A DNA stretch of 64,000 nucleotides from Candidatus Aenigmatarchaeota archaeon (GTDB taxonomy: Archaea > Aenigmatarchaeota > Aenigmatarchaeia > QMZP01 > QMZT01): NCBI GenBank assembly GCA_041489155.1, contig JBGPQP010000006.1:1338-65337 (forward strand), read 5' to 3'. Positions 4,649-48,772 of the stretch are shown one piece after another; position 1 is the first letter of the stretch; every line of letters begins with the position of its first letter. Under the pieces are notes generated by a model. The model did not search any database. It saw only the letters and a program-made list of their open reading frames with translations, and was not told where the DNA came from. A program made the position numbers and the translations under genes.

Positions 4649-4796
4649 GCTGGGATGGCGGAATGGTAACGCGCTAGCCTGGAATAAGCCTTTTGACCAA
4701 AAGGCTTAAGCGAAAACCAGCAGCTCACGCTTGCATTTGGTTTGCCAGACAGCTAGTCTCCTTACGGGGTCCTGGGTTCGAATCCCAGTCCCAGCG
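4649..4796 (+). tRNA. tRNA-Ser (GGA) with a 66-nt canonical 37/38 intron (4685-4750)
   Basis: Acceptor GCUGGGA/UCCCAGC, D arm with GG, anticodon stem CUAGC/GCUAG, loop CUGGAA|A, long variable arm CUCC-UUAC-GGGG, T arm CUGGG-UUCGAAU-CCCAG, discriminator G. The intron forms a strict BHB: CUGG:CCAG central helix, bulges AA|U and AC|A, distal helix AAGCC:GGUUU. No encoded CCA. Confidence 0.9.
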
Positions 4797-4830
4797 TTTC
4801 AAGACCAGAAGCATAAAATTACGGATAATT

Positions 4831-5520
4831 ATGAAAACAATTAACGCAGAAAAAATCCCGCTGCCAGAACCTTTCCATTCCCTGACAGGCGGCGTAGAGA
4901 GAGGAACGATTACGAATTTCTACGGCCCGCCGGGCGTGGGAAAAACGAATATCTGCATCCTCGCCGCACTGGAATGCATAAAGAAGGGCGGCAAGGTCAT
5001 TTACATCGACAGCGAGGGCGGGCTGTCGCCGGAACGCATAATGCAGATAAGCGGCGACCAGAGCGTCCTAGAGCGCATAATCCTGATCGAGCCCAAAACC
5101 TTTGAGGAGCAGGGCGTGGCTATAAAGAACCTGGAGGGCAGCGAGTTCGACATGCTGGTCCTCGACTCCGCCGTCGCTTTGTACAGGCTGAAATGCGCCG
5201 ATCCCGGCAGCGAGACGCTCGAGGCGAACAAGGATCTGTCCGTGCAGCTTTCCGTCCTCTCCAACATCGCCAGGAAAAGGAACATTCCCGTCATCATCAC
5301 AGCGCACGTCTTCAAGAACTGGGACACGGGCGAGAACCAGATGATAGGCGGCGACGCCATCAGATACTGGTCCAAATCAATCATCTTCGTCGAGCACACT
5401 GGCAGGATGAGCGAGCGCAAGGCAACAATCGTAAAACACCGCTCGATTCCGGAGGGCAAATTCGTTAAATTCGAGCTCGTTCAGAACGGCATACGCCCGT
5501 CGGGCTTCAGGATATTCTGA
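4831..5520 (+). CDS. radB: RadB (RadA/Rad51 paralog, single RecA-like domain)
   Basis: 229 aa from ATG 4831; the track start at 4693 is a TTG inside the tRNA. Walker A GPPGVGKT, Walker B MLVLDS, RadB-like size and tail. Confidence 0.85.
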   Translation: MKTINAEKIPLPEPFHSLTGGVERGTITNFYGPPGVGKTNICILAALECIKKGGKVIYIDSEGGLSPERIMQISGDQSVLERIILIEPKTFEEQGVAIKNLEGSEFDMLVLDSAVALYRLKCADPGSETLEANKDLSVQLSVLSNIARKRNIPVIITAHVFKNWDTGENQMIGGDAIRYWSKSIIFVEHTGRMSERKATIVKHRSIPEGKFVKFELVQNGIRPSGFRIF

Positions 5521-5586
5521 TTATAATGTAAAGAAAATAAACCACCGAAAAGTCGTTAATTTAAAGCTTGTTTTTAACACTAAAAC

Positions 5587-6375
5587 ATGAGCAAAGGCCT
5601 CATCACCGTAAGCACGGACTGGCACGTGATAAGGGAAGGCGACAGGGCCCAGAACTCCACGGACCCGAGGCTGCTGAGGGAGTATCTGAAATGGGGCTAT
5701 CTGGATACGGACAAGGTAATACTCGGGGGAGACATATTTGACCTTGGCAAATCCACCATTGATAAAATAATGTACGGTGACGGCGCATATGTCGATCTGA
5801 TAAAACTTATTCAAAACTATATGAAATACAAAAAGCTGGAATACATCGCCGGCAACCATGACTGGGAAATGACCAAAGAATGGAAACTGAATGACAGGTT
5901 GTATATCCCTGAACAGAAGGTTATGGTGATGCACGGCCATCAGCTTGATGCCAACCCGGGCTTTTCAGGCAAATGCATAGAAAGGACTCTGCTTAAAGTT
6001 CTGGCCTTTCTGGAAAGAACTGTGTGGGAAGACATAGACCAGATTCCTTCTTTCATGGAGAAAAATTTTCACATCGACGCCGAGAGCAGGGAGAAATTTT
6101 TCACCAACTGTCAAAACTACATGAACGCAAGAGGCAGAACAATTCCGAGAAAGAAACATCCGGTCGATACCCTTTTCGTGGGACACATACACGGAAACCC
6201 TGAAACAAGGGCTCTGGAAGATGGCAGAAAAATAGTCAATTGTGGCTGCAACGTCAAAGTTTGCCTGACCAACAAGAAACCTGAAGATGAGCCTGGCAGT
6301 TACAGGTCCGATTATGTGGTACTTGACACCAGAACAGGAGAAATAACCGCGAAGGACATGAGGGACGGTTTTTAA
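5587..6375 (+). CDS. Calcineurin-like metallophosphoesterase
   Basis: Motifs GGDIFDLG, GNHD, HGH and GHIH in canonical order. Confidence 0.75.
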   Translation: MSKGLITVSTDWHVIREGDRAQNSTDPRLLREYLKWGYLDTDKVILGGDIFDLGKSTIDKIMYGDGAYVDLIKLIQNYMKYKKLEYIAGNHDWEMTKEWKLNDRLYIPEQKVMVMHGHQLDANPGFSGKCIERTLLKVLAFLERTVWEDIDQIPSFMEKNFHIDAESREKFFTNCQNYMNARGRTIPRKKHPVDTLFVGHIHGNPETRALEDGRKIVNCGCNVKVCLTNKKPEDEPGSYRSDYVVLDTRTGEITAKDMRDGF

Positions 6376-8526
6376 TTATTTTTCCTTAATGTGGGAAGGT
6401 TTCGATGCCGCCTGCTGAGCCTTTTCTTTTCCCGCTGGGGCTTTCTCTTCCTTTGTCGCAGCTGTCTTTGCACCTTCTTTTGTCGCGTCACCCTTCCTGT
6501 TCACGAAGCCGCATTTGACGCAGAGCTTCCATGGACGGCGCTTGAACTGCTTCACCTGGATGATGTTGAGGCCGCAAGTGGGGCATTTCTCGTCCGTCGC
6601 GGATACGTAGCCTTTCTGCGGCAGCGGGAAGCTCTGCCTGCACTTCGGGTAATTGGAGCAGCCGACGAAATGCTTCTTGGTAATGTGCGAGCGGATTATG
6701 CGCAGCTCGCCCTTGCATGCGGGGCATACGCCGACAAAATGAGCCATCTCCTGGAATTCCTTCACGCCTTCCTTGAGTTCGGAGCCTATGTGCATCTCGT
6801 GCTCCTTGAACTTCTGGAGCGTTTTCTCCAGCTCTTTCCTCGCGTTCCCGACGATTTCATCCCTCTTCCTTTTACCCTCCTGGATGAGCTCGATCTCATG
6901 GTCAAAAGTCTTGGTCAGCTCTTCGGAGATTATCTCAGGGCAGTGCTTCTCGAGCGCTTCGATTACCGCAGAGCCAAGCGCAGTCACCCTTATCGACTTG
7001 TCCTTTATGTATTCCCTGTCGTAAAGCGTCTGGAGTATTTGCGCGCGCGTCGCTTTCGTGCCCAGGTTCTTGTCCTCCATGGTCTTGAGGATCGAGGCCT
7101 GAGAGTAGCGGTCGGGCGGCGTTGTCTCCTTCTCGTTGAGCTTTACATCAGGCTTGTCGACGTTCTGGCCTTGCGTCATCTCGGGCAGAAGCTGCTCCTT
7201 GAACTTCGCGTACCTGCCGTAGAATTCCATCCACTCGGGTTTTATGGTTGTTGCGCCGAAGGCCTTGAATTTCTCGCCATTGACGTCTATCGCCACGGTC
7301 ACCCTTTCGCGTAGCGCGGGATCGGCGAACGTCGAGAGGAATCTCCTGACTATGATGTCGTAGATGTTCTGCTGGTACTTGCCGAGCTTCGCAGGCTTAA
7401 GGCCGGTCGGGAAAACGCTTGGGTGGGCAGGGTCGTCCTTGTCTCCCTCGATCGGGATGAACTTGCCCTTCTTGATCAGCCTGCCGCAGAGCGCGGCGTA
7501 TTCGCCCTGCTCCGCCAGCTTTTCAATTATTGCCCTGAGGCCCAGCTTCTGGGGCAGCTTCTGGCTAGACGTCCTCGGATAGGAAATAAGCGCATGCTCG
7601 TAGAGATTCTGGGCTATGTCCAGCGTCATCTTCGGGGAATAGCCGAAGTTGTTGAACGCCTCGCGCTGCAGCGTGGTGAGGTCGAAAGGCGTCGGCGGGA
7701 GCTGCTTTACAATCTTCTTTTCGATCTCGTGAACGGCTGCTTTCTTGCCGGTGCATCTCTTTAGGATGGTCTCGGCCTGCCCCTTTTCCCAGAATTTATC
7801 GGCTTCATGGAGCGCGGTTATCTTCTTGCCGTTCACCAGGCCATGGAGCTCGAGCGTCCAGAACAGCTCTGGCACGAATCTCTCGATTTCCCGTTCGCGA
7901 TCCTCCAGGATCTTCAGCGTCGGGCCCTGAACTCTTCCGATGGACAATGTCCAGTAGCCATTCGCCTTTTCCAGCGCCAGCGTAAGGGCGCGGGAAAGGT
8001 TGATGCCCCACAGGAAATCAAGCATGTGCCTTGTCAGGCCTGCCTCTATCTGGGGGAAATCGAGATGAGGCGTTGCGTTGGCATAAGATTCAAGTATGTC
8101 CTTGTCCGTAAGCGTGGAGAATTTCATGCGCCTGCCGTCTTTCGCGTTGCATATGAAGCGAATGATGTTGTAGGCGATGGTCGAGCCTTCGATGTCGTAG
8201 TCGCATGCAGAAACGAAATCAGTCGCGCCCTTCGCGAGTTTGGCTATGTTCGCGTAGTATTTCTGGGCCCATAAATTGTCCTTGTCGTCGAATGTCGGCC
8301 GCCATTCGACGTCGAAGACGGGATACGTCCATTTCGCCTTCTTTCCTTTCTCGTCCAGAACGAAAAGATGTCCGACAGCAGGGACGACAACTATGTCCTT
8401 GCCGCCATGCCTCAGCCTGAAGTATATCACGCTCTTGCCACTCTTTTCTACCTTGCCTTCGGCAAGCGCGTAAGCAATTCTTTCCGCTGCGCTGGGCTTT
8501 TCCGCTATGACGAGCGTATAGGACAT
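6376..8526 (-). CDS. topA: Type IA DNA topoisomerase with C-terminal zinc ribbons and a Lys-rich tail
   Basis: N-terminal TOPRIM (LVIAEKPS...DYDIEGS), central topo IA core, and CPACKG...CSNYPKC...CPTCG...CVKCG zinc ribbons. Confidence 0.9.
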   Translation of the reverse strand: MSYTLVIAEKPSAAERIAYALAEGKVEKSGKSVIYFRLRHGGKDIVVVPAVGHLFVLDEKGKKAKWTYPVFDVEWRPTFDDKDNLWAQKYYANIAKLAKGATDFVSACDYDIEGSTIAYNIIRFICNAKDGRRMKFSTLTDKDILESYANATPHLDFPQIEAGLTRHMLDFLWGINLSRALTLALEKANGYWTLSIGRVQGPTLKILEDREREIERFVPELFWTLELHGLVNGKKITALHEADKFWEKGQAETILKRCTGKKAAVHEIEKKIVKQLPPTPFDLTTLQREAFNNFGYSPKMTLDIAQNLYEHALISYPRTSSQKLPQKLGLRAIIEKLAEQGEYAALCGRLIKKGKFIPIEGDKDDPAHPSVFPTGLKPAKLGKYQQNIYDIIVRRFLSTFADPALRERVTVAIDVNGEKFKAFGATTIKPEWMEFYGRYAKFKEQLLPEMTQGQNVDKPDVKLNEKETTPPDRYSQASILKTMEDKNLGTKATRAQILQTLYDREYIKDKSIRVTALGSAVIEALEKHCPEIISEELTKTFDHEIELIQEGKRKRDEIVGNARKELEKTLQKFKEHEMHIGSELKEGVKEFQEMAHFVGVCPACKGELRIIRSHITKKHFVGCSNYPKCRQSFPLPQKGYVSATDEKCPTCGLNIIQVKQFKRRPWKLCVKCGFVNRKGDATKEGAKTAATKEEKAPAGKEKAQQAASKPSHIKEK

Positions 8527-8596
8527 AATACTATTAAAACCAGCTCATGTTTAAAAGTTTTCGCTGCTTTTTCACTGCTCAGGGCCTAAAATCACG

Positions 8597-8851
8597 TTAA
8601 ATCTTGAAGACAAGGTCCCCTTCTCTTACCCTGTCGTTCACCTTCATGCCGACCGCTTCGCCCTTCTTGGCCTCACTCACGTTCTTGTGCTCGACCTGCA
8701 TCGACTCTATCCTCTGCTGCACGTTCGTCGACGTCCCTTCGATCGAGATCTCGTCGCCGACCTTTATGGTGTGCTCGACGTCAATGACGGCGACGCCTAT
8801 CTTCGTGAAGTAATGCCTTACCTTGCCTACGAGCTTCTTTTCCCCTTCCAT
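8597..8851 (-). CDS. Small stand-alone beta-barrel protein resembling EF-Tu domain 2
   Basis: 84 aa. GKVRHYFTKIGVAVIDVEH.IKVGDEI.I.G......I.SMQ.......A..G..VG..V.....GD.V pattern, typical of translation-factor domain II. Confidence 0.6.
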   Translation of the reverse strand: MEGEKKLVGKVRHYFTKIGVAVIDVEHTIKVGDEISIEGTSTNVQQRIESMQVEHKNVSEAKKGEAVGMKVNDRVREGDLVFKI

Positions 8852-8890
8852 GCTTTATTCCTTGGAAAAGGGGCTTAAAAATAAATATGA

Positions 8891-9049
8891 TGCGGGAGCA
8901 GGGATTCGAACCCTGGAACACATGCCTCGCGCTTCGCTAAGCGAATGCTTCGCAAAGGCGCCCTAAGTGAGCAGGTCTTGAGCATCGACATCATCTTGAA
9001 TCAGAGTTCAAGACCATTCTACCGCCTTTGACCACTTGGCTACCCCCGC
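8891..9049 (-). tRNA. Class II tRNA, probably tRNA-Leu (CAA), 159 nt with two insertions (about 8983-9017 in the anticodon arm, about 8922-8962 in the variable arm)
   Basis: Acceptor GCGGGGG/CUCCCGC, discriminator A, Leu-type D arm GCC-AAGUGGUCAAA-GGC, intact T arm CAGGG-UUCGAAU-CCCUG, loop CUCAAGA followed by CCUGC, variable arm U-CAC-UUAG...GUG-UUC. Exact splice sites were not resolved; no strict BHB was found by hand. Confidence 0.6.
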
Positions 9050-9075
9050 ATTATAGAAATTGCAGAAACAGCTTA

Positions 9076-9600
9076 TTAACCTATCGCCCTCAGCTGCGCC
9101 CTGAGCTTCTCCAGCTGGCCGTACACGTTTTTCATGTGGTCCTCGACCTCGCCCCTTTCTTCCGGTTCGAGGTCCTCTTCCTCGTAATCCTCCGGCCTTT
9201 CCATTGCCTGGGGCTTCATGAAGAACGCATCGAGGTTCGATGTTAGCTCGTTGAGTTCGTCGAGGGTTTTTTGCGCGATTTCTATGCCATTTGCCACTTC
9301 CCTCTGCATGTCCCTCAGAACGTCAAGCGCATCCCTGAGGTTGAGGATGTAAGAGCGCAGATCGCGTATATTTTTAACGATGGCCCTGTACTTGTCGACT
9401 TTTATGAAAAGCGGCGGAGATTGCGTCGAAGGCGTTGGTCTTGGCGCGGGCGCTCTGGGAGCAGGAGCCCTCTTTATCTCTGGCAGTTGTACAGAGGGAG
9501 AGTAGTTTTCCTCTGCCGGTTGCTGTTCAGAATCAGCTTCTTTCTCTTCCTCTGGCTGCAGCTCCTTTATCTCCTTTGCCTTGCTTTTAAAGAGCTTCAT
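9076..9600 (-). CDS. Hypothetical protein: acidic/Pro-rich disordered N-half plus coiled-coil C-half
   Basis: Start moved to ATG 9600 (MKLFKSKAK); the track ORF ran into the tRNA-Gly gene. PAPRAPAPRP linker, then heptad-like LFIKVDKYRAIVKNIRDLRSYILNLRDALDVL... Confidence 0.6.
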   Translation of the reverse strand: MKLFKSKAKEIKELQPEEEKEADSEQQPAEENYSPSVQLPEIKRAPAPRAPAPRPTPSTQSPPLFIKVDKYRAIVKNIRDLRSYILNLRDALDVLRDMQREVANGIEIAQKTLDELNELTSNLDAFFMKPQAMERPEDYEEEDLEPEERGEVEDHMKNVYGQLEKLRAQLRAIG

Positions 9601-9653
9601 AGTAATTATTTCCCGCGCGTCAATAAATATATTAATTTCGCCACTGTTCCGCA

Positions 9654-9793
9654 TGCGTCGGCCGGGAGCTTCAGACGGAAACAGACGAAGTCTGCTTCAT
9701 GCGCCTTTTGAACCCGGGCTACAGGCTTGGCAAGCCTGTGTCCTATTGCCCATTCGCTCTCGCGAAGCGAGCACCAGGCTAGACTACCGACGC
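9654..9793 (-). tRNA. tRNA-Gly (GCC) with two non-canonical introns: D-loop (9746-9773, 28 nt) and T-loop 59/60 (9668-9706, 39 nt)
   Basis: Acceptor GCGUCGG/CCGACGC, D stem GUCU/GGAC, anticodon arm CAGGC-UUGCCAA-GCCUG, T stem CCGGG/CCCGG. Removing both insertions gives a 73-nt cloverleaf with T-loop UUCAAAU. Both insertions can be drawn with BHB motifs. Confidence 0.85.
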
Positions 9794-9877
9794 ACAATTT
9801 CGATGGACGACCTGAAATATAGAGTCAAATCGTCAATCGCTGTTTGGTAATAATTTTTGCTTTGCTGGATTTAAAGC

Positions 9878-10174
9878 TTAGCCGAACAGGGCCCCGAAAC
9901 CTTCGGCAGCGGAGTCTTCCTGCTCCTTTATCTTCTTCAGCACCTCGTCCTTCTCATGGCCGGCGACTTCCTTCCCCTTGTCGCCGATAAGATGCTTCGC
10001 CTTCTCTATCGCCTCGTGGGAGCCGTCAATCTCAAGGTAATAGCCGTCCTTGTTGAAACCGAGCGCTCGGGCTTCCCTGAAATTTATCGTATGCCTCGAC
10101 ACAGTATCGTCTGCGTAAAGCAGGTTCTTGACTCCTGAATAATGCTCCATGGTTATGAAGAAAACCGTCTTCAT
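9878..10174 (-). CDS. 98-aa protein with a ribosomal-stalk-like C-terminal tail (..EQEDSAAEGFGALFG)
   Basis: ATG 10174 preceded by GGAGGU at a 6-nt spacing; the longer track start is unsupported. The beta-rich N-domain is unlike aP1. The last 7 residues, GFGALFG, resemble the conserved aP1 tail GLGALFG. Confidence 0.7.
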   Translation of the reverse strand: MKTVFFITMEHYSGVKNLLYADDTVSRHTINFREARALGFNKDGYYLEIDGSHEAIEKAKHLIGDKGKEVAGHEKDEVLKKIKEQEDSAAEGFGALFG

Positions 10175-10261
10175 GCTCTTACCTCCTGAACATAACATTC
10201 GTTTTATTATCTGAAATATTTCGCGCAAGAATTAATATTTATTCCCTGCCGGTTTTTCAGG

Positions 10262-11731: not shown

Positions 11732-11783
11732 ATAATTTAATTTGTCTTCTGTGTAATATATATTCTCTGGAAAAGCCGGAACT

Positions 11784-12590
11784 CTATTTCTTGCTTTTGC
11801 TTCCCTTCATTTTCCAGAAGGCCAGCAGGCCAGCGATTACGATGACCGCAGCAAGGAAAACGATGATTAATAAATTATTATCCAAAATGCTCGTTGGGCT
11901 GCCGCCTGCCATCTCACCGGTCACCGTTATTTCTTTTTGGATAGTTTTTTCAGCGAAACCTTCTTTTGAAAGAACCACTCTAATGTTCATGATGTCAGGG
12001 TCAGCCTTGAAACTTGCCAGGCCTGTTGTGAAGTAAAGGTCTTTGAAAGTATCATCGTAGACAAGATAGCCTTTTATTTCCGAGTTTTGAGGGCATTCTA
12101 CCTTCACGTAGACAGTTTCTCCTGCATCAAAAACGAGGCCCACATCATCACATGCTGTGTCGTAGCAAATAACCGCTTCGCAATCGCTGAAGCTGTCTAA
12201 TGCCCCTGCGACATAGAACGTCGTCGTTTTTTCACCTATAACATTGTCTGATTCGTAAATTCTGACAGAATGTACGTATGTCCCTGATTTTGAATACTCA
12301 CTAACATCAAAACTTAAGTCGGAAATCATGGTATTGTTGTTAGGTTCAATAACGAATGTCTCATAAAGCGGCATTGGCTCTATTCCCGGGTAAATCAGAT
12401 ATTGTTCAACGGTTATGTTCACCTGTGTGCTTTCATTATTTACTAACACGGTTCCCAAATCTACGGAATCTCCCGAATAAAAGGTCTCGCCATTTACATC
12501 TTGGAAGTTTACGATTTCCAGAGAATAGGCTGATGAGGTTAAAAGGATAAATATCATCATTGAGAACAGCATAAAGTCTTTAAATGACAT
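11784..12590 (-). CDS. Secreted protein with a C-terminal TM anchor
   Basis: Signal peptide MSFKDFMLFSMMIFILLTSSAYS|LE. C-terminal TM LLIIVFLAAVIVIAGLLAF followed by KMKGSKSKK. Confidence 0.7.
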   Translation of the reverse strand: MSFKDFMLFSMMIFILLTSSAYSLEIVNFQDVNGETFYSGDSVDLGTVLVNNESTQVNITVEQYLIYPGIEPMPLYETFVIEPNNNTMISDLSFDVSEYSKSGTYVHSVRIYESDNVIGEKTTTFYVAGALDSFSDCEAVICYDTACDDVGLVFDAGETVYVKVECPQNSEIKGYLVYDDTFKDLYFTTGLASFKADPDIMNIRVVLSKEGFAEKTIQKEITVTGEMAGGSPTSILDNNLLIIVFLAAVIVIAGLLAFWKMKGSKSKK

Positions 12591-15828: not shown

Positions 15829-17646
15829 ATGAAGGCGATGAAGGCGCAGGTAGAATTCATAGTCATCTTCGCCCTGATAGCCGTCGCAGCCGTGGTGATT
15901 CTGGTTTCTTCGAGGCTATTCGTCATCGGCGACACGAATCCAGCGATAACCGGAACCGAGCAGGAGAAAAAGTTAGTGAGCGATTCCATCCTTAACGCGA
16001 TAAGAAACGCGGCTAAAGACGAACTGAAAGAGATATACCAAACCGGCGCCTCCGAGGCAGCAACTAGGAAAATCAAGTACAGCATGAAAGACATCGGCGT
16101 ATGGCAGGACTGCGATCTTACGCAGACGCCGAACGTCGAACGGCTACTCCGGAACAAAATAGAAGAAAGTTTAACGACGATATTCAAGCCTGAGATGGAG
16201 TTTTTCGGCAAGAAAGTTTACTTCGATGTCAGGAACATAGACGTCATTGTAAAGCTGCAGGACGGCGGCGTAAATATAGACGTGAACATGCCGACCGTTG
16301 TCGAGAATTCGAGCATAGCGCAGCCTTATAGCATAGTCGTTCCCTCGAAGCTGAAGAAGATACTTGAGACCAGCAAGGAGATAACCGACAGGAACAACGC
16401 ATCGAGCTTCTTCGAAGTGGCGACTATCAATTCAATTCTGCATTCGAACCCCGAAATCGTGGACGAGTGGCTGCCGACCATCGATTTGAAGACCGGCTGC
16501 TGGAACGCGCTTTTCAAAACCGAGCAGGAAGCAGCCAATACACTGGAGACCTTTGCCAAATACACCGCAAGCCACACGGTATACAACAGGCAGGTTATGG
16601 AAATACCGGACAATCCCTTTTACGTCTTCGGGGTTTCCGATTCTGACATTAACGTATCATTCATATACCCGGATGAATGGGACATGACAAGCAACATCGA
16701 AATCACGCCCAATCCTCTTGTTTTCTATCCGAAACCCATTCTCTCTTTTTCATCGGTGTGCATTGAAACGACCGACGTCCGCTATTCGATGAGATATCCT
16801 GTGATCGTCTCAATAAAGGACGATGCGATGGGAGAGCTGTTCAATTTTGTACTCATGGTGAACATAGATGATAACCAGCCGGGCTGCGGTTTTGTCAAAG
16901 GGACTAAAGCGCCTTATTATGAAAAATGCTTTTTGGAAAGCGGTTGCCCGGTCACCATAAATGTAAAGGATGCGAACGGCCTTCCGCTTCCGAATGCGCT
17001 GGTTACATTTGGCGAATGCTCGCTGGGATGGACCGACTATGCTGGCGCCCTTAGCTCGCTGGCTCCATGTATGATAGGCGAGCTTGCTGCGCACAAGGAA
17101 GGCTACAAAGAATACAGGAAACTGATGAAGGCATCTGACCTGCGCGATTATGCGATAGCGATGGAGGCAGAAGGCAAGGAGATGACAGTCCACTTTTACG
17201 GCGTCCCGCTCAAGTCAGGGGAATACATGGGCGGCGGCAGATACGTTGACTATGCTGTTTCCGGTCAGGGAAGGGAGATGAAGCTTTTCGATGAGGAGTA
17301 TTTTGTCCTCGTGTACATGAAGCCCAGGGAAGGCGAAAACGTGATGCTTTACAACCTTGACGCCAGCGGTTTCACGTCGGCGTCAAAGGCGATGATAAAT
17401 AGCGGTTCGTACGACATGTTCGGCGCCGTGGTGAACAACATGACAGGCGATACAGTCGGCTACATAGAATCAGCCTACCTTTCCAGCGGCAATGAAAACG
17501 AGCTTTATGTCTATCTGCCTCTTGTGGAAAACCTCCATGAGGCGCTACAGCCGAGCGAAATATACAAAATGAAAGCTGCGTTTGGCGAATGCAATCTAAA
17601 CGTCGTGAGCGCCAGCCAGCAGAACGTGAGCGTGCCATGTGGTTGA
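15829..17646 (+). CDS. Large extracellular protein with a type IV pilin-like (class III) signal peptide candidate
   Basis: N-terminus MKAMKA|QVEFIVIFALIAVAAVVILV: basic, then A|Q, then E at +3, then a hydrophobic helix. Internal CarboxypepD_reg-like stretch VTINVKDANGLPLPNALVTFG. Confidence 0.7.
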   Translation: MKAMKAQVEFIVIFALIAVAAVVILVSSRLFVIGDTNPAITGTEQEKKLVSDSILNAIRNAAKDELKEIYQTGASEAATRKIKYSMKDIGVWQDCDLTQTPNVERLLRNKIEESLTTIFKPEMEFFGKKVYFDVRNIDVIVKLQDGGVNIDVNMPTVVENSSIAQPYSIVVPSKLKKILETSKEITDRNNASSFFEVATINSILHSNPEIVDEWLPTIDLKTGCWNALFKTEQEAANTLETFAKYTASHTVYNRQVMEIPDNPFYVFGVSDSDINVSFIYPDEWDMTSNIEITPNPLVFYPKPILSFSSVCIETTDVRYSMRYPVIVSIKDDAMGELFNFVLMVNIDDNQPGCGFVKGTKAPYYEKCFLESGCPVTINVKDANGLPLPNALVTFGECSLGWTDYAGALSSLAPCMIGELAAHKEGYKEYRKLMKASDLRDYAIAMEAEGKEMTVHFYGVPLKSGEYMGGGRYVDYAVSGQGREMKLFDEEYFVLVYMKPREGENVMLYNLDASGFTSASKAMINSGSYDMFGAVVNNMTGDTVGYIESAYLSSGNENELYVYLPLVENLHEALQPSEIYKMKAAFGECNLNVVSASQQNVSVPCG

Positions 17647-21503: not shown

Positions 21504-21599
21504 AGCGGGGTGGAGCAGCCTGGAGTGCTCGCTGGGCCCATAACCCAGAGGTCGATGGTTCAAAACCTTAATGAAAAGGTGAAAATCCATCCCCCGCTA
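21504..21599 (+). tRNA. Initiator tRNA-Met (CAU) with a 21-nt T-loop (59/60) intron at 21565-21585
   Basis: A1:U72, anticodon stem CUGGG/CCCAG (three G:C), loop CCCAUAA (C33). T stem GAUGG/CCAUC. The insertion forms a strict BHB: UUCA:UGAA, bulges AA|A and AA|U, distal helix CCUU:AAGG. The spliced T-loop is UUCAAAU. Confidence 0.9.
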
Positions 21600-27288: not shown

Positions 27289-27452
27289 AGCCCCGGGCGA
27301 GGATTGAACTCGCGACCTTTCGCTTTTTGTCGGCAGAATATTCGTTTTCTGCCTAAGCTCTTTCCTAAAGAGCTTATACCAAGCGAACGCTCTGTAGGGA
27401 TTGAAGCAGGTTTCACCTGCTTCGCTCGAAATTACCACTGAGCTACCGAGGC
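27289..27452 (-). tRNA. tRNA-Thr (GGU) with two insertions: D-region (about 27393-27432, 40 nt) and canonical 37/38 (27325-27376, 52 nt)
   Basis: Acceptor GCCUCGG/CCGGGGC (one G.U), D stem GCUC/GAGC, anticodon arm UUCGC-UUGGUA|..|A-GCGAA, variable AGGUC, T arm GCGAG-UUCAAUC-CUCGC, discriminator U. The spliced length is 72 nt. The D-region boundary is ambiguous because GAGCG is duplicated. Confidence 0.8.
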
Positions 27453-36771: not shown

Positions 36772-36999
36772 TCAACTGACTTCCCTGTACAGGCCGATGT
36801 CCACCACGAAGATGATTATGCCAACTACCACCAGGGTCGCGATGAAGAGCACTATGGTTATGAGTGGGTGGAGATTGAAGAATGAATAGACCACCAGGTA
36901 TACGAGCAGCAGAATGGCAACGATGCAGAGTATTGTGATCAGCAACTTCAGCTTTCTGCTGAACTCCTTCACATGGACTTCGTCGGGCTTGAACGCCAT
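36772..36999 (-). CDS. 75-aa two-TM membrane protein
   Basis: ATG 36999 and two long hydrophobic helices. The upstream leader region carries the repeated hairpins. Confidence 0.55.
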   Translation of the reverse strand: MAFKPDEVHVKEFSRKLKLLITILCIVAILLLVYLVVYSFFNLHPLITIVLFIATLVVVGIIIFVVDIGLYREVS

Positions 37000-37019
37000 A
37001 TATATCGCTTTTTTCTGCT

Positions 37020-37042
37020 TAGGCTCTTTCCTAAAGAGCTTA
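37020..37042. repeat. Palindromic hairpin element, copy B (taggctcttt-cct-aaagagctta)
   Basis: 10-bp arms with one mismatch. Together with its flanks (37011-37060) it is near-identical to the anticodon-arm/intron junction of tRNA-Thr (27325-27385). Confidence 0.8.
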
Positions 37043-37084
37043 TTGGAAGCAAATGCAGCGGAGCGGAGTGAAGCTCCTTTCTGA

Positions 37085-37111
37085 TTAAGCTCTTTCCTGA
37101 AAAGAGCTTAA
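37085..37111. repeat. Palindromic hairpin element, copy C (ttaagctcttt-cctga-aaagagcttaa)
   Basis: 11-bp perfect arms, the same arm sequence as copy B and as the tRNA-Thr intron hairpin (27354-27376). Confidence 0.8.
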
Positions 37112-37185
37112 GCTTATTATATATTTAAATTAGTTTAACATAAATAATTGTCATCTCAACGTATGTCAAACTATATAAATTAGAA

Positions 37186-41096: not shown

Positions 41097-41156
41097 ATCC
41101 GGAAACCGCATCCGGGGATAGCGAGATTTTTACAATCTTGAGTTTCCATATTCTTT

Positions 41157-42290: not shown

Positions 42291-42291
42291 T

Positions 42292-42735: not shown

Positions 42736-43415
42736 TCATGCACGTAAAGCGTTACACGATACCCAAATACTGGAAGGTGAAGAAGAAGGCAAACAAATTC
42801 GTGGTGGCTCCGAGACCAGGACCTCACAAAAAATACGAGTCCATCCCTCTTCTCGTCGTTCTCAGGGACGTTTTGAAGGTATGCGCCGATGCAGGCGAAG
42901 CGAGAAGCGTAATCAAGAAAGGCGAAATTCTTGTTGATAAAAGGGCAAGGAAGGACACGAACTATCCCGTCGGCTTCATGGACGTCATCGAGATACAGAA
43001 GATGCACAAGTTCTACAGGGTCATTGTAGACAAGCACGGCCTTGCGCTTCATGAGATAAAAAACGAAGAAGCAGGCAAGAAGCTGTGCAGGATACAGCAA
43101 AAAAGAAAGGTGAAGGGAGGCATGATACAGCTCAACCTTCATGACGGCAGGAACGTTCTGACGGACAAGAATGATTACAGGCCGAATGACTCGGTGCTCA
43201 TCGAGCTTCCGGACCAGAAAATACTGCAGCACTTCAGTTTCGACAAGGATGTACCTGCAATCATAATCGCAGGCAAAAACATCGGGGTACACGGCAAGGT
43301 GAAGGAAATATTCCAGAGGAAGACCATGCTTGAAAGCAGCAGGGTCATTCTGCAGACCAAGGACGGAGACATAGAAACCGTAAAGGAATACGTGCTGGTC
43401 GGTGAAATCAAATGA
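42732..43415 (+). CDS. rps4e: Ribosomal protein eS4
   Basis: HVKRYTIPKYWKV...KFVV.PRPGPH; 227 aa. Confidence 0.9.
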   Translation: MIMHVKRYTIPKYWKVKKKANKFVVAPRPGPHKKYESIPLLVVLRDVLKVCADAGEARSVIKKGEILVDKRARKDTNYPVGFMDVIEIQKMHKFYRVIVDKHGLALHEIKNEEAGKKLCRIQQKRKVKGGMIQLNLHDGRNVLTDKNDYRPNDSVLIELPDQKILQHFSFDKDVPAIIIAGKNIGVHGKVKEIFQRKTMLESSRVILQTKDGDIETVKEYVLVGEIK

Positions 43416-43921
43416 ATCCCATGAGAGAGATACGCCTTGAGAAGGTTACCATCAACATAGGTGCAGGAGAAGCAGGGCCCAAACTCGAAATGGCCAAGAA
43501 GCTGCTTGAAAAACTGAGCGGCACGAAGGTCGTTGTTACTTCGACCCGCAAGCGCTCGACCTTCGGCGTCGCCAAGAACAGGCCGATCGGCGTGAAGGTA
43601 ACGCTGCGCGGCGAGAAGGCGAAGACGTTTCTCGCCAGCGCGCTGAAAGCGAACGAGAACAGGCTGAAGCCGAACCAGTTCGACAGCAGCGGCAATTTCT
43701 CGCTGGGCATAAGGGAATACATAGACCTGCCCGGGATTAAATACGACCCGGAGATAGGGATAATGGGCATGGATGTCTGCGTAACGCTCATAAGGCCGGG
43801 CTACAGCATAAGCCGGAAGAAAATAAGGCCGAAAAGCATAGGCAAGGCCCACAGGATAACGGCGGAGGAAGCGAAAGAGTGGGTGCAGAAGGAATTCAGC
43901 GTAAGGATTGCTGAAGAATGA
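43412..43921 (+). CDS. rpl5: Ribosomal protein uL5
   Basis: [16 protein letters not shown]...; 169 aa. Confidence 0.92.
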
Positions 43922-43937
43922 GCGAAAGGTGTTGAAC

Positions 43938-44159
43938 ATGAGTTTCGAAAATGCCAAAAAGCAGATTGAAGGCAAACCGATAAAATTAGCAAGATTCATG
44001 AAGTTCAACAAAGCGAAGGGCAGAAAATTCGGGCGGGGAGCGAAGCCATGCAGGAGATGCGGCAAAACCGAGGGAGTGATACACAAATACGGCCTCTGCT
44101 ACTGCAGGCAGTGCTTCAGGGAAGTGGCGAGGGAACTGGGCTTTGAAAAATATGAATGA
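43938..44159 (+). CDS. rps14: Ribosomal protein uS14 (zinc type)
   Basis: ATG 43938 with AAAGGUG 6 nt upstream; the track start is TTG 43908. CRRCG...CRQCFRE. Confidence 0.85.
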
Positions 44160-44557
44160 GGTTTATGTTTATGAAACACGACAATCTATCCGACATGTTC
44201 ACGGTAATAAAAAACTCCGAGCAGAACGGCGGTAAGGAATGCGTGGTTCCTAGCTCGAGCATAATAAAGGAAGTGCTCAAAATCATGCAGAAGAACAAAT
44301 ACATAGGCTCGTTCGAGTTCATAGACGACGGCAGGAGCGGGAAGTTCAAGGTGGAACTGCTCGGCAGGATAAACAACTGCGGGCCGATAAGGCCGAGGAC
44401 GTACATCACAAAAGACGAATTCATCAGGTGGGAGAAAAGATTCCTGCCTTCTGTTAACGTGGGAATCCTGTTCATAACGACGCCGAAAGGCATAACCGAC
44501 CACAGAAACGCCAAGAAAGAGAAGACCGGGGGCGCTTTGCTCGGCTACATATATTAG
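44156..44557 (+). CDS. rps8: Ribosomal protein uS8
   Basis: [13 protein letters not shown]...; C-terminal GG.LLGYIY. Confidence 0.9.
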
Positions 44558-44565
44558 GTGGAAAC

Positions 44566-44829
44566 ATGACGCTGGAAAATGAAATCAAAGACGCCATGAA
44601 GGATAAGAAACTGGTGATGGGCAGCAACAGGATTTTCGGCGGCATCAAGCAGGAAGCAATAAAATACGTCATATGCTCAAGCAACTGCAGGGAGGATGCG
44701 CTTAACGACCTTAACTATTACAGCAGGAACTTCGGCATCGAGATAAAGAAGTTCGCTGGCAACTCGAGGCAGCTCGGAGAAATATGCGGAAAACCTTTCA
44801 ACATCATGCTGCTGGGCGTAAAGAAATAA
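44566..44829 (+). CDS. rpl30e: Ribosomal protein eL30
   Basis: 87 aa, L7Ae/L30e fold pattern (K.KKLVMGSN......K....KYVI.SSNC....). Followed by NusA-S12-S7-EF2, as in the archaeal str-like operon. Confidence 0.8.
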   Translation: MTLENEIKDAMKDKKLVMGSNRIFGGIKQEAIKYVICSSNCREDALNDLNYYSRNFGIEIKKFAGNSRQLGEICGKPFNIMLLGVKK

Positions 44830-44839
44830 GCTGGTATGG

Positions 44840-45244
44840 ATGACCATAAAGCTGACGACCGAACATGTGCGCCTCGTCGGGACGTTCGAAAGAATCGCCG
44901 GCGTCCACGTGAAGGACTGCGTTATGGACGAGGACACGGTTTACTTCCTGATCGAACCCGGGAGGATGGGCAGGGCGATAGGAAGGGACGGCAGCAACAT
45001 CCGCAGCGTCTCGAATGCGCTCGGCAAGAAGGTAAAGGTATTCGAATACGCGGACACGCCTGAAAAACTTGTCCGCAACATAGTACCGACCATAAACTCG
45101 TTCGAGATGAGCAACGAGGCCATAACGATCTCGGTGCCTGTGTCCGACAGGTCGATTGTCATAGGCAAGAACGGCAAGAACATAAAAATGATGAGGCAGT
45201 TCCTCGACAGGCACTTCAATATCAAGAATTTAAGGCTGAAATAG
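44840..45244 (+). CDS. nusA: Archaeal NusA-like protein (two KH domains)
   Basis: GRAIGRDGSNIRSV and IVIGKNGKNIKMM GxxG KH motifs; 134 aa. Confidence 0.88.
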   Translation: MTIKLTTEHVRLVGTFERIAGVHVKDCVMDEDTVYFLIEPGRMGRAIGRDGSNIRSVSNALGKKVKVFEYADTPEKLVRNIVPTINSFEMSNEAITISVPVSDRSIVIGKNGKNIKMMRQFLDRHFNIKNLRLK

Positions 45245-45312
45245 TATAAAATGATAATCCGGCAGCCTATGTCATTAATAGGCTGTCTTGCGAAATAAGG
45301 ACTGTGTTGACC

Positions 45313-45741
45313 ATGGGCGGAGCATTCTCTGCAAGGAACCTGAAGAAGAAAAGGAGAAAGTTCAGGTGGAGCTCCGACAAGAAGAAAAGGAAGCTCATGA
45401 AGCTCTGGAAAAAGAGCCCGCTGAAGGGCGCTCCCATGGGAAGGGCGCTGGTGCTCAAGAAAAAGGGCATCGAGCAAAAGCAGCCCCACTCAGGCATAAT
45501 CAAGGCCGTCAGATGCCAGCTCATAAAGAACGGCATCCAGATTACTGCCTTCGTTCCGAAGACCGGCGCCATAAAGCATATAGACGAGCACGATGAGGTC
45601 CTTGTCGAGGGCCTCGGCGCTTCCCAAGGAGGAGCGGTAGGCTCGATGCACGGCGTGCAGTACAGGGTCGTTTCTGTAAACGGCGTCCCCTTGTCCGAGA
45701 TACTCAAAGGCAAGAAAGAGAAAGGCAAAGGAAGCGGATAA
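45313..45741 (+). CDS. rps12: Ribosomal protein uS12
   Basis: ATG 45313; the track start is GTG 45304. KQPHSGIIKAVRCQLIKNG.Q.TAF.P..GA...IDEHDEVL.EG. Confidence 0.92.
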   Translation: MGGAFSARNLKKKRRKFRWSSDKKKRKLMKLWKKSPLKGAPMGRALVLKKKGIEQKQPHSGIIKAVRCQLIKNGIQITAFVPKTGAIKHIDEHDEVLVEGLGASQGGAVGSMHGVQYRVVSVNGVPLSEILKGKKEKGKGSG

Positions 45742-45743
45742 GC

Positions 45744-46340
45744 ATGGCTATTCTTCTTTTCAACAGGTGGGACTTCGCAGGCGTTGAGGTAAGAGACGCC
45801 GGTCTCAAGAAGTACATGACTCTCAGACCTGTGGTTGTGCCGAAAACCTGCGGCAGATACGGAAGCGTTTCGATTCACAAAATAAAGATGAACATAGTCG
45901 AGAGGTTCATCACCAAGCTTTTCGTGCCCGGCCACAGGGGCAAGAAGCACAAGCTGACGTCCGGCCAGGTTGTCGGCGGTTACCAGAGGATTTTCAACGC
46001 CATGAACGACGCGTTTGACATAATAGAGAAGAGGACCAATAAAAATCCCATCCAGATACTTGTGACCGCGATAGAGAACGGCGCGCTTTACGAAGAGGTA
46101 ATGGGCTACAGGCTCGGAGGCGTGATCGCGAGGAAGGCGGTCGTCGTCGCTCCGCAGCGAAGGCTTGACGTGTCGCTGAGGCTTATAGCGCAGGACATAT
46201 TTTCAAGATCATTCCACAGCAAGAAAACGTTCCCGGAAACAATCGCCGATGAACTCATTGAACTTGCAAGCAACGACCAGAGGAACAACGTAATCCGCGA
46301 GAGGCAAAGGATAGAAAAGGAAGCGGAAAGCGCGAGGTAA
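45744..46340 (+). CDS. rps7: Ribosomal protein uS7
   Basis: 198 aa, typical archaeal S7 (..VERFITKLF..G...GKK.....). Confidence 0.9.
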   Translation: MAILLFNRWDFAGVEVRDAGLKKYMTLRPVVVPKTCGRYGSVSIHKIKMNIVERFITKLFVPGHRGKKHKLTSGQVVGGYQRIFNAMNDAFDIIEKRTNKNPIQILVTAIENGALYEEVMGYRLGGVIARKAVVVAPQRRLDVSLRLIAQDIFSRSFHSKKTFPETIADELIELASNDQRNNVIRERQRIEKEAESAR

Positions 46341-46358
46341 GCCTGATTCTGGCAAATC

Positions 46359-48560
46359 ATGCTTAAAAGTGATGTTTGTATGATAACCAAGGATTTGACA
46401 TTAGTCATAAAGGACCTTATGCTCAAGCCGGAGAAGATCCGCAACATCGGCATAGTCGCCCACATAGACCACGGCAAGACGACGTTCAGCGACAATCTCC
46501 TTGCAGGGGCGGGCATGATATCACAGGAACTCGCGGGCAAACAGCTGGCGATGGACTTCGACAAGCAGGAGCAGGAAAGGGGCATAACGATATTCGCCGC
46601 AAATGCCAGCATGGTGCACGAATACCACAACGAAAGCTATCTCATCAACCTTATAGACACTCCCGGGCACGTGGACTTCGGAGGCGACGTCACGCGGGCG
46701 ATGAGGGCCGTGGACGGCGTCATCGTGCTGATAGACGCGGTGGAGATGGTGATGCCGCAGACCGAGACCGTCATCCGCCAGGCGCTTAGGGAACGCGTCA
46801 AACCAATTCTTTTCATCAACAAGGTCGACAGGCTTATCAAGGAGCTCAAACTCACGCCGGAGCAGATGCAGGAAAGGCTGAAGAGGATAATCACGGACGT
46901 CAACGCCCTTACACAGAAATACGCAGAGAAGGAATTCGCGGAGAGGTGCGTTACAAATGTCGCCGACGGCAGCGTTGCCTTCGGCTCGGCAGTGAAGAAC
47001 TGGGCAATTTCGATTCCCTACATGCAGAAGACAGGCATAACCTTCAAGGACGTCATTGACCTGACCAACAAGGGCCCTGAAGGCGAGAAGGAGCTTGCGA
47101 AGCGAGCGCCTCTTCACACCATCGTTCTCGACATGATAATCAAACACCTGCCCAACCCGCTTGTTGCGCAGAAATACCGCATACCAAAGATATGGCCCGG
47201 AGAGGCCGACTCGGAAGTAGGGAAGGACATGGCCTCGTGCAACCCGAACGGCAAGCTGGCGGCAGTCGTGACAAAGCTTTACCCTGACCCTCACGCAGGA
47301 TATGTCGCTACGGTGCGCATATTCTCCGGCAAGATAAGGACAGGACAGGAAGTCTATCTAGTTGGCATGGCAAAGCCGCAGAAGGTGCAGCAGGTTTCTG
47401 TTTACAAGGGAGCGCAAAGGATAACGATGGACGAAGTCGATGCCGGCAACATCGTGGGCGTCGTCGGGCTGAAGGAATCTTATTCAGGCGAGACGCTTTG
47501 CGATCCGGAAAACATAATCCCGAGTTTCGAGCTGATAACCCACATCTTTGAGCCTGTTGTGGTGAAGGCGATAGAACCGAAGAAGCCACAGCAGCTTGCG
47601 AAGCTCATCGACTTCCTCAGGAAGGTCGCCAAGGAAGACCCGACGCTGAGGGTAAAAATCAACGAGGAGACCGGAGAATATCTTGTTTCCGGCCTCGGCG
47701 AACTGCATATAGATGCCAAGATAGAGCGCCCGCTAAAGGACGCGGAAATAGAAGTCGACGTTTCTCCGCCCATCGTAATTTACAGGGAATCCGTGCGCGG
47801 CCCGACGCCGCAGGCGATAGAAGGCAAATCTCCCAACAAGCACAACAGGTTCTACATAATCACCGAACCCCTTAACGAAAAGATACACCAGGCCATGGTG
47901 AGGGGCGACATACCGTCGAGCTCCGAGCTGAAGAAGAAGGATCTCGAGCTGCAGGACAAGCTGATAAACCTTGGCCTCGACAAGGAAGAGGCGAAGAAGG
48001 TCAGGTTAGTACACAACCGCAACATCTTCCTTGACATGACGAGGGGCGTGCACGCGATACTGGAAGTCATGGAGATGCTGAAGGAATCGTTCACGGAGGC
48101 GATGGACGAAGGCCCTCTTGCGAGGGAGCCGTGCGACGCGATAAAGGTGAAGCTCGTTGACGCGAAGCTGCACGAGGACGCGATACACAGGGGCCCTGCG
48201 CAGGTTATACCGGCTGTCCGTTCAGCAATACGTGACGCGATGGTCTCGAGCAGGGCCTTCATCCTAGAGCCGAAACAGATAATCAGGATAGACGTCCCGA
48301 GCGAGCAGATGAGCGGCGCCATGAAGGAAGTGCAGAACAGGAGAGGCCAGATAATTGAAATGGGAGAGGAAAGAGGCACTTCGACCATCACGGCCAAGCT
48401 GCCTGTCGCAGAGATGTTCGGCTTCAACTCCGCACTTAAATCATCGACTGGCGGCAAGGGCTTTTACTGGCTAATAGACGTAGTTTACGAGCCGCTGCCC
48501 AGGGACCTTGAGCCGAGGATTTTGAGCCAGATAAAGCAGAGGAAGGGGATAACCGAATAG
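46359..48560 (+). CDS. fusA: Translation elongation factor aEF-2
   Basis: IRNIGIVAHIDHGKTT, DTPGHVDF, NKVDR; diphthamide-loop region HEDAIHRG. The start could instead be ATG 46380. Confidence 0.93.
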   Translation: MLKSDVCMITKDLTLVIKDLMLKPEKIRNIGIVAHIDHGKTTFSDNLLAGAGMISQELAGKQLAMDFDKQEQERGITIFAANASMVHEYHNESYLINLIDTPGHVDFGGDVTRAMRAVDGVIVLIDAVEMVMPQTETVIRQALRERVKPILFINKVDRLIKELKLTPEQMQERLKRIITDVNALTQKYAEKEFAERCVTNVADGSVAFGSAVKNWAISIPYMQKTGITFKDVIDLTNKGPEGEKELAKRAPLHTIVLDMIIKHLPNPLVAQKYRIPKIWPGEADSEVGKDMASCNPNGKLAAVVTKLYPDPHAGYVATVRIFSGKIRTGQEVYLVGMAKPQKVQQVSVYKGAQRITMDEVDAGNIVGVVGLKESYSGETLCDPENIIPSFELITHIFEPVVVKAIEPKKPQQLAKLIDFLRKVAKEDPTLRVKINEETGEYLVSGLGELHIDAKIERPLKDAEIEVDVSPPIVIYRESVRGPTPQAIEGKSPNKHNRFYIITEPLNEKIHQAMVRGDIPSSSELKKKDLELQDKLINLGLDKEEAKKVRLVHNRNIFLDMTRGVHAILEVMEMLKESFTEAMDEGPLAREPCDAIKVKLVDAKLHEDAIHRGPAQVIPAVRSAIRDAMVSSRAFILEPKQIIRIDVPSEQMSGAMKEVQNRRGQIIEMGEERGTSTITAKLPVAEMFGFNSALKSSTGGKGFYWLIDVVYEPLPRDLEPRILSQIKQRKGITE

Positions 48561-48632
48561 GCTCCTTCCATTTAACTCTTTTTGGTTTTTGCTAAACTTT
48601 TAATATATTCACGATAATTATTCTTACCTATA

Positions 48633-48772
48633 GGGGCCGTGGTGTAGCTAAGCCCTTTCACGGCAGCTTTCGCTTGCACGAAAGCGCTTGCGGAAAACGT
48701 GAATGGCTCTGCAATGGTCTAGCATTCAAGCTTCGGGAGCTTGCGACCTGAGTTCGAATCTCAGCGGCCCCA
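48633..48772 (+). tRNA. tRNA-Pro (CGG) with a 65-nt D-loop intron (48650-48714)
   Basis: Acceptor GGGGCCG/CGGCCCC, D stem GUGU/GCAU, anticodon arm CAAGC-UUCGGGA-GCUUG, T arm CUGAG-UUCGAAU-CUCAG, discriminator A. BHB-like fold: GUAG:CUGC central helix, bulges CU|A and AA|U, distal helix AGCC:GGCU. The spliced D-loop is AGCUUGGUCUA. Confidence 0.85.

Follow-up and report, generated by a model that had tools for sequence, protein, structure and literature searches.

A window of 64 kb from the archaeal contig JBGPQP010000006.1, the whole stretch of DNA analysed here, carries six tRNA genes (Ser-GGA, Leu-CAA, Gly-GCC, initiator Met, Thr-GGU and Pro-CGG), and the number of these that are uninterrupted is zero. 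Very probably all six are functional genes whose insertions are introns of the archaeal endonuclease type, recognised through a bulge-helix-bulge (BHB) motif, with one or two in each precursor. Nine introns of 21-66 nt were found, two each in the Leu, Gly and Thr genes and one each in the Ser, initiator Met and Pro genes, and together they make up 386 of the 847 nt of gene sequence. Seven of the nine lie at non-canonical sites, namely in the D-loop (17/17a, 19/20 and 20/21), the anticodon stem (30/31), the variable-arm loop and, twice, the T-loop (59/60). A preliminary description of this DNA had proposed at least nine insertions, several of them at non-canonical positions, and both statements hold: nine are counted, all at the sites that it named, and its coordinates are exact, with window positions 4649 and 48772 forming the precise ends of the first and last tRNA genes.

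The genes are not readily found by standard means. Default ARAGORN made no tRNA call in the unspliced window, and with the canonical-intron option it called Ser(gga) with a 66-nt intron and mis-called the two-intron Leu gene as Asp. The Rfam tRNA model gave three over-long matches, at 4649-4796 on the plus strand (148 nt), 21504-21599 on the plus strand (96 nt) and 8891-9049 on the minus strand (159 nt), to which a permissive threshold added a sub-threshold partial match at 48709-48764 (+). A custom scan for a 7-bp acceptor stem, U8 and a 5-bp T-stem followed by TTC recovered these four loci together with Gly at 9654-9793 (-) and Thr at 27289-27452 (-); over the window and the remaining 20 kb of the 84.9-kb contig it returned no further credible tRNA gene, the rest of its output being obvious noise. 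Rfam and the custom scan thus bear out the earlier statement that all six genes are interrupted and none is intact, and the proposed check with tRNA finders (ARAGORN and Rfam) likewise revealed no intact gene in the window. Once the inserts are removed in silico ARAGORN calls all six products, as Ser(gga), Leu(caa), Gly(gcc), Met(cat), Thr(ggt) and Pro(cgg), which agrees with every anticodon first assigned, including the one for Leu that had carried a question mark. Each gene is contiguous and colinear with its halves in order on one strand, so that the organisation is neither split nor permuted. Self-splicing group I or II introns are contradicted, since the inserts, at 21-66 nt, are far too short and no Rfam intron family matches even at E<=10. 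With an archaeal average of about 15% of tRNA genes containing introns, three quarters of them at 37/38 according to a review (PMC11408192), the chance of six interrupted genes out of six would be about 1e-5.

The geometry of the insert boundaries was examined next. BHB cleavage generally takes place after the second nucleotide of each bulge, and all junction pairs were searched on this basis for a motif comprising a 4-bp helix H between two 3-nt bulges. Every insert (9/9) is bounded by a BHB or relaxed BHB motif. The central helix H is fully paired (4/4) at six junction pairs and paired at three of four positions in the other three, and eight of the nine pairs reach H>=3 with flanking helices h+h'>=4, as against 1.1% of shuffled genes examined with the same fixed junctions. 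The T-loop introns of initiator Met and Gly have the strict hBHBh' form and Thr intron 1 is strict except for one central-helix mismatch; the remaining six adopt relaxed forms (HBh' or hBH) with H of 3/4 or 4/4. There is also covariation in the central helix, which for Leu intron 1 reads CGGU/GUCG in the window and CGAU/GUCG in the relative L073, and for Leu intron 2, read by eye, is ACUU/GAGG in the window and UCUC/GAGA, a 4/4 helix, in L063.

Two of the genes are of class II. tRNA-Ser(GGA) (4649..4796, +; 49.7 bits with Rfam and called by ARAGORN in intron mode) has a single 66-nt intron at the canonical 37/38 position (4685..4750, +; H 4/4, h=6), with the BHB gcuagc-CUGG-[AA^U] ... CCAG-[AC^A]-gcuagu and a 5' end formed by the hairpin UAAGCCUUUU-GACC-AAAAGGCUUA and then AGCGAAAAC. 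Its orthologs in L055-L076 all have a 37/38 intron, differing in length and sequence. tRNA-Leu(CAA) (8891..9049, -; Rfam 35.9 bits with a 102-nt unaligned block) is interrupted twice and, when spliced at the final junctions, matches its orthologs. The first intron, 35 nt in length with the sequence AAUGGUCUUGAACUCUGAUUCAAGAUGAUGUCGAU, lies in the 5' strand of the anticodon stem at 30/31 (8984..9018, -; H 4/4), where the motif is gg-CGGU-[AG^A]-au ... au-GUCG-[AU^G]-cu; it is absent from L058 and L062, which read AUAGGCUCAAGACCUAU. This BHB occupies nucleotides 23-28 and therefore cannot coexist with the D-stem, so that the precursor would have to refold, as precursors of multiple-intron tRNAs are known to do. 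The second intron, of 40 nt, is in the long variable-arm loop (8923..8962, -; gene positions 88-127; H 3/4, h'=4), with the BHB c-ACUU-[AG^G]-gcgc ... gcgc-GAGG-[CA^U]-g, and its junction is fixed because the variable arm is uninterrupted, as UCACUUAGUGUGUUC, in L073, L058 and L061.

T-loop introns at 59/60 are found in two genes. In tRNA-Gly(GCC) (9654..9793, -; found by the acceptor and T-arm scan) the T-loop intron is 39 nt long (9668..9706, -), with the strict motif ccggg-UUCA-[AA^A]-ggcg ... cguc-UGAA-[GC^U]-cccgg, and in the initiator tRNA-Met(CAU) gene (21504..21599, +; Rfam 44.2 bits, with A1:U72 and a GGG/CCC anticodon stem) the sole intron, of 21 nt (21565..21585, +), has the equally strict gaugg-UUCA-[AA^A]-ccuu ... 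aagg-UGAA-[AA^U]-ccauc. The other Gly intron, of 28 nt, is placed in the D-loop between G19 and U20 (9746..9773, -; H 4/4 as GCCU/GGGC, with weak flanking helices). Its junction is fixed by the intact D-loop AGYCUGGUA of L060, L062 and L073, and it was on account of these intron-free orthologs that other registers, giving D-loops of 7, 11 or 13 nt, were rejected. At the same 19/20 site L058 has a homologous intron and L063 one of 16 nt.

The two remaining genes are also interrupted in the D-loop. tRNA-Thr(GGU) (27289..27452, -; custom scan) has a 40-nt intron between U20 and A21 (27394..27433, -; H 3/4, h=4 in the D-stem, h'=3), where the BHB is gcuc-AGUG-[GU^A]-auu ... aau-CCCU-[AC^A]-gagc and the predicted mature D-loop AGUGGUA, and a 52-nt intron at the canonical 37/38 (27325..27376, -; H 3/4, h=5), with uucgc-UUGG-[UA^U] ... 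ACAA-[AA^A]-gcgaa, which begins with the hairpin UAAGCUCUUU-AGGA-AAGAGCUUA followed by GGCAGAAAAC. tRNA-Pro(CGG) (48633..48772, +; partial Rfam match of 28.9 bits together with the scan) is directly downstream of the gene for elongation factor 2 (EF-2) and has one intron, of 65 nt, between U17 and U17a (48650..48714, +; H 4/4, h'=4), with the motif u-GUAG-[CU^A]-agcc ... ggcu-CUGC-[AA^U]-g. The intact D-loop AGYUUGGUYUA of L006, L007 and L012 fixes this junction; an alternative at gene positions 13-82, with a perfect hBHBh', was rejected as it would delete A14 and disagree with those intact loops. The 17/17a site holds introns of 65, 37 and 85 nt in L004, L005 and L013. The predicted mature Gly-GCC and Pro-CGG tRNAs have 4-nt variable loops (UAGC and CGAC respectively), one nucleotide below the usual.

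Comparison with relatives separates what is maintained in these genes from what is not. The ortholog set comprised 29 genes for Ser, Leu, Gly and Pro tRNAs at loci of conserved synteny, taken from genomes and metagenomes, in which Pro-CGG follows EF-2 and the Ser, Leu and Gly genes flank the topoisomerase I gene. All 29 are interrupted, by 1-4 introns each, and alignment-guided splicing gives the same tRNA from every one (29/29), with an exon identity of 0.80-1.00. Intron number, site, length and sequence vary freely among the orthologs and the exons are conserved, with compensatory changes, read by eye, in the acceptor and anticodon stems (GGGGCCG/CGGCCCC to GGGGUCG/CGACCCC; CAAGC/GCUUG to CAGGC/GCCUG) and likewise in the variable arm (CAC/GUG to CUC/GAG). 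Orthologs that do not have a given intron set the junctions of five of the window introns. In 247 kb of close relatives Rfam found no uninterrupted tRNA gene and, at the gathering score, detected only the least interrupted ones. The pace of change is apparent in L055, whose topoisomerase is 96% identical and whose Ser exons are 100% identical to those of the window; in comparison with the window gene at 4649-4796, its Ser gene (2938-3120) has an additional 44-nt T-loop intron and a diverged 37/38 intron, differences that point to very recent intron gain or loss.

The load can be higher still. Four introns are present in the Leu(CAA) gene of L060 (4390-4623; 235 nt), in the D-loop, at 30/31, in the variable arm and in the T-loop, and in that of L062/L064 (4024-4332; 310 nt), where in L062 two are in the D-loop, one in the variable arm and one in the T-loop; both the L060 and L062 genes give a valid Leu(caa) when spliced in silico. 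Judged from these comparisons, the clade of this genome is one with a very high and rapidly changing tRNA intron load. Elsewhere in the Aenigmatarchaeota there are intron-poor lineages (interrupted tRNA genes number 0/5 in L083, 0/2 in L089, 0/2 in L091 and 1/4 in L085) and intron-rich ones (7/7 in L093 and 3/4 in L101), the counts for L093 and L101, two low-GC hot-spring lineages, being taken from gene length and visible inserts only. Similar single-unit EndA genes are present in all six. As separate observations on the Pro-CGG gene, the ortholog in L018 (7206-7308) apparently has two short introns (about 15 and 14 nt) in the anticodon loop, flanking the anticodon, and in L003, the closest relative in the genome collection, a run of N with duplicated flanks occurs inside the gene (12149-12248), probably an assembly problem caused by repeated intron modules.

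How would mature tRNAs be produced from such genes? The enzymes, the cleavage chemistry and the splicing itself are here taken over from established archaeal tRNA-splicing biochemistry, and the gene anatomy, the BHB geometry, the cloverleaves obtained by in-silico splicing and the conservation of exons rather than introns are seen directly. Each gene would be transcribed as a precursor with one or two introns removed by protein enzymes, with each junction pair folding into a BHB or relaxed BHB in which two 3-nt bulges on opposite strands are separated by a 4-bp helix. The splicing endonuclease EndA would then cut both bulges and an RtcB-type ligase would join the exons, and probably circularise the intron, to give normal tRNAs of 72-84 nt. 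The best explanation is that splicing here is ordinary archaeal tRNA splicing taken to an extreme degree and not a new mechanism. As the initiator and the five elongators encoded on the contig would all need to be spliced, translation is likely to depend heavily on splicing, and the earlier suggestion of such a dependence gains support, as an inference, from six interrupted genes that include the initiator.

A number of points weigh against this interpretation. The analysis covered a single contig (84.9 kb) of the genome, and intact paralogues may lie elsewhere. Genes for EndA and RtcB were found neither in the window nor in the parts of the contig that were read. The motifs themselves are imperfect, in that three central helices carry one mismatch each, the Ser and Thr 37/38 introns have no contiguous inner helix and the helices flanking the Gly D-loop intron are weak, so that an endonuclease of strict specificity would not be expected to cut all nine. 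The initiator Met and Thr junctions are set by BHB geometry and cloverleaf rules, the orthologs compared being those of the Ser, Leu, Gly and Pro genes.

One alternative is that the genes are functional and spliced but that some junctions differ from those given, or that some inserts are removed by a route other than EndA. There is some basis for this in the Pro gene, where the strict alternative gggcc-GUGG-[UG^U]-agcua ... uggcu-CUGC-[AA^U]-ggucu shares its 3' site with the adopted junction, in the several near-equivalent registers of the Gly D-loop, and in the initiator Met and Thr junctions just mentioned. The alternative Pro junction, however, removes A14 and leaves a D-loop of 6 nt, whereas the D-loops of intron-free orthologs (Pro AGYUUGGUYUA and Gly AGYCUGGUA) agree with the junctions adopted, and the inserts are far too short for self-splicing and match no Rfam group I or II intron. 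Misplaced junctions or a second removal route are, on this evidence, very unlikely.

Could the genes instead be dead? They might be tRNA pseudogenes inactivated by small dispersed hairpin repeats, resembling miniature inverted-repeat transposable elements, with working copies located elsewhere. The intron hairpin UAAGCYYUUU..AAARRGCUUA followed by AGCRGAAA does also occur outside tRNA genes, and standard tRNA finders miss or mis-call most of these loci. Pseudogenes would not, however, be expected to keep intact exons that give perfect cloverleaves, to conserve those exons with compensatory changes over many independent assemblies in which the inserts vary, or to hold every insert within a BHB-type motif, and there is no intact tRNA gene in the contig or the 247 kb of relatives to act as a replacement for a set that includes the initiator. 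Inactivation of this kind is consequently regarded as highly improbable. The inserts could also be artefacts of assembly or binning, with chimeric joins falling inside tRNA genes, which as conserved repeated sequences are prone to mis-joins, and the N gap with duplicated flanks in the Pro gene of L003 indicates that such problems arise. Against this, the genes around Ser, Leu, Gly, initiator Met and Pro encode identical proteins on independent contigs from an NCBI metagenome-assembled genome (MAG), JGI and Logan, orthologs from unrelated samples have introns at the same sites, and the inserts are short with precise BHB flanks, which together leave an artefact barely credible.

With the six genes taken as functional and spliced, the relationships among the introns give some indication of how they arose. 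A family of 59/60 introns, which includes the second Gly intron of the window, is common to Gly, Ser, Pro and Leu genes, with a mean column identity of 80% and compensatory changes in its inner hairpin. A separate hairpin module, UAAGCYYUUU-loop-AAARRGCUUA followed by AGCRGAAA, starts the Ser and Thr 37/38 introns in the window and the D-loop and T-loop introns of Pro, Leu and Gly in relatives; it stands at the 5' end of introns at many tRNA positions, with a tail of GAAAA type. Over a block of 23 nt the Ser intron shares 96% identity with T-loop introns that relatives carry in their Gly and Pro genes. That related intron sequences are present in different tRNA genes suggests that introns were gained repeatedly, by being copied from one tRNA gene to another.

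The hairpin module is not confined to introns. It is found 1-2 nt after the discriminator base of tRNA-Pro, in the 3' trailer, in L003 (12410-12435) and L013 (12441-12475), and in the window two tandem elements (UAAGCUCUUU..AAAGAGCUUA plus AKCAGAAA) lie outside tRNA genes at 37011-37130 (-), just after a TATA-like box and upstream of an open reading frame of 75 codons (36772-36999, -). This position is kept in relatives (L003 ~480-502, L005 ~670-693 and L013 ~709-732), and one of the intergenic copies in the window precedes a module that is almost the same as a portion of the Pro intron of L013. The window copies fold onto each other (z = -2.9) and no BHB is evident in the fold; for the site as a whole, a small RNA gene, a 5' leader and a palindromic operator are all conceivable. 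The hairpin together with AGCGAAAAC was also considered as a CRISPR repeat and rejected, as what would be the "spacer" recurs in conserved form in both the intergenic copy and the Pro intron of L013, and an IS200/IS605-type palindromic element is unsupported, there being no common target sequence 5' of the copies.

One intron may have acquired a function. The first Leu intron is 97-100% identical in L059, L060, L061, L063 and L073, but for the variable-arm intron in these genes no similarity across relatives could be detected. Its layout is antisense(GGUCUUGA)-ACU-CUGA-UUCA-AGAUGA, in which GGUCUUGA is complementary to U33-C40 of its own tRNA, with C34 as the partner of the fifth nucleotide upstream of CUGA. 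The segment CUGA-UUCA-AGAUGA constitutes a single pair of D'/C'-like boxes, and there is no terminal C/D pair. In L093 the Leu-CAA intron at 37/38 (~17130-17170) has the same core with a different antisense register that again points to C34, although the splicing motif of that Leu gene does not resolve into a clean BHB, and the Trp introns of L085, L093 and L101 show the same antisense-CUGA layout. The window ribosomal-protein cluster includes a gene of the L7Ae family (PF01248). Besides the single box pair there are two further caveats: the box nucleotides also form the inner BHB helix, and the loose box motif occurs in the window at the level of chance (1 found, 1.26 expected), although the sole occurrence is inside this 35-nt intron. 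It is possible, on the basis of these sequence features, that Leu-CAA intron 1 is a minimal box C'/D' guide for Cm34. A box C/D guide in the euryarchaeal tRNA-Trp intron has reportedly been described before (Clouet d'Orval in 2001, Singh in 2004). As in that guide (PMC11408192), the antisense element is directed at the host tRNA itself with the fifth nucleotide on C34, a residue that is methylated in tRNA-Trp; unlike it, the host here is Leu-CAA and the intron, only 35 nt long and located at 30/31, lacks terminal C and D boxes. In P. furiosus, C34 of Leu-CAA has been predicted to be a C/D target (PMC7668247). If correct, a Cm34 guide would carry the tRNA-Trp paradigm over to another tRNA and to an intron of 35 nt at a non-canonical site. 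A wider proposal, that the clade is in an ongoing burst of tRNA-intron gain and loss by way of small modular elements and that the Leu-CAA intron has been kept as a one-K-loop C'/D' guide for the wobble C34, is put forward tentatively and is more doubtful than not.

What sort of endonuclease would process such varied motifs? A tblastn search with a M. jannaschii EndA sequence gave matches only in the distant relatives L039, L040, L041 and L048, and the EndA database matches and contigs that were inspected all belong to other Aenigmatarchaeota or DPANN lineages, with none from this clade; the 1.1-Mb contig that represents the closest large assembly (L004) does not appear among the matches listed. 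All the Aenigmatarchaeota enzymes reached are single-unit proteins of 175-250 amino acids with PF02778 and PF01974, including those whose genes neighbour the intron-rich tRNA sets in L093 and L101, and the three-unit epsilon2 type does not occur among them. In comparison with the M. jannaschii sequence they all have a Lys-rich insert of 6-7 residues between the catalytic Tyr and His, which is present in intron-rich and intron-poor lineages alike. In DPANN archaea a single-unit EndA of alpha4 type with an extra loop (L3) goes with disrupted tRNA genes (Kaneta et al. 2018, PMC5829648), and the Aenigmatarchaeota enzymes appear to fit this pattern and not an epsilon2-like novelty. An unusual EndA architecture in this genome, as the preliminary description predicted, is thus not favoured by what the enzymes of its phylum look like.

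The host itself can be placed from its genes, which within the window include an archaeal ribosomal-protein cluster, EF-2, PCNA, Cbf5/TruB, MetRS and S-layer genes. Identical proteins are encoded on JBGOXE010000006.1 (GCA_041478965.1) and on JGI and Logan contigs, and the closest EF-2 genes in a species-level genome collection, at 80-90% identity, all come from Candidatus Aenigmatarchaeota MAGs. On this sequence evidence the contig is assigned to a Candidatus Aenigmatarchaeota MAG, within the DPANN, and the earlier impression of a DPANN-like genome is in keeping with the EF-2 neighbourhood. The EF-2 matches in L026 (479-3397), L028 (1-2899) and L037 (1102-3930) span about 2.9 kb in place of 2.2 kb, a length suggestive of an intein or some other insert within that gene.

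The consequences are both practical and biological. With ARAGORN and Rfam missing or mis-calling most of these genes, tRNA counts for the lineage, and the MAG quality grades that depend upon them, will be wrong, and annotating it calls for tools able to deal with introns at non-canonical sites. The endonuclease and ligase of tRNA splicing would be as central to translation as they are in Thermoproteales, but in a small-genome DPANN archaeon. On the question of how archaea acquire their tRNA introns, this clade offers strains that differ in the presence or absence of introns although the protein encoded alongside is 96% identical, and the intron families shared across tRNAs, with the copies of the module outside tRNA genes, provide material for reconstructing individual gain events.

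Multiple and non-canonical BHB introns are already well described in Thermoproteales, Korarchaeum, Nanoarchaeum and ARMAN. The multiple-intron tRNA genes of Thermoproteales and the transposition of their introns are said to have been treated by Sugahara in 2008 and Fujishima in 2010. Multiple non-canonical BHB introns and a proposed transposition of introns are documented for that order (PMC4033280), and the likeness to the present genes is close: several BHB introns per gene, in the D-arm, anticodon stem, variable region and T-loop and at 37/38, similar introns in different tRNA species, and fast change of intron number between relatives. Unlike the Thermoproteales, the host here is not a hyperthermophilic crenarchaeon but a DPANN archaeon from sediments and metagenomes whose GC content is about 50% and whose stems are not rich in GC; the Leu genes of its relatives reach four introns, as against a maximum of three per gene in the 2014 review (PMC4033280); one intron module also occurs outside tRNA genes; and the EndA of other Aenigmatarchaeota is single-unit and not (alpha-beta)2 with the crenarchaeal loop. 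With DPANN archaea that have a broad-specificity EndA, either the epsilon2 enzyme of ARMAN-2 (PMC3239211, PMC3488258) or alpha4 with L3 (PMC5829648), the similarities are non-canonical and multiple introns in genes that are under-called, and the single-unit EndA genes of the phylum resemble those of the alpha4-type group (PMC5829648). Aenigmatarchaeota are absent from the DPANN genomes analysed in that study (PMC5829648), and no description of their tRNA introns was found in the literature searched. The split, tri-split and permuted tRNA genes of Nanoarchaeum equitans, Caldivirga and Thermofilum (PMC3218864) likewise rely on BHB processing by the same endonuclease and occur in lineages rich in disrupted tRNA genes, but the window genes are colinear and contiguous, with both halves within 96-164 nt. 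What the window presents is thus a known type of gene structure, striking in its degree, in a little-studied lineage with very fast intron turnover.

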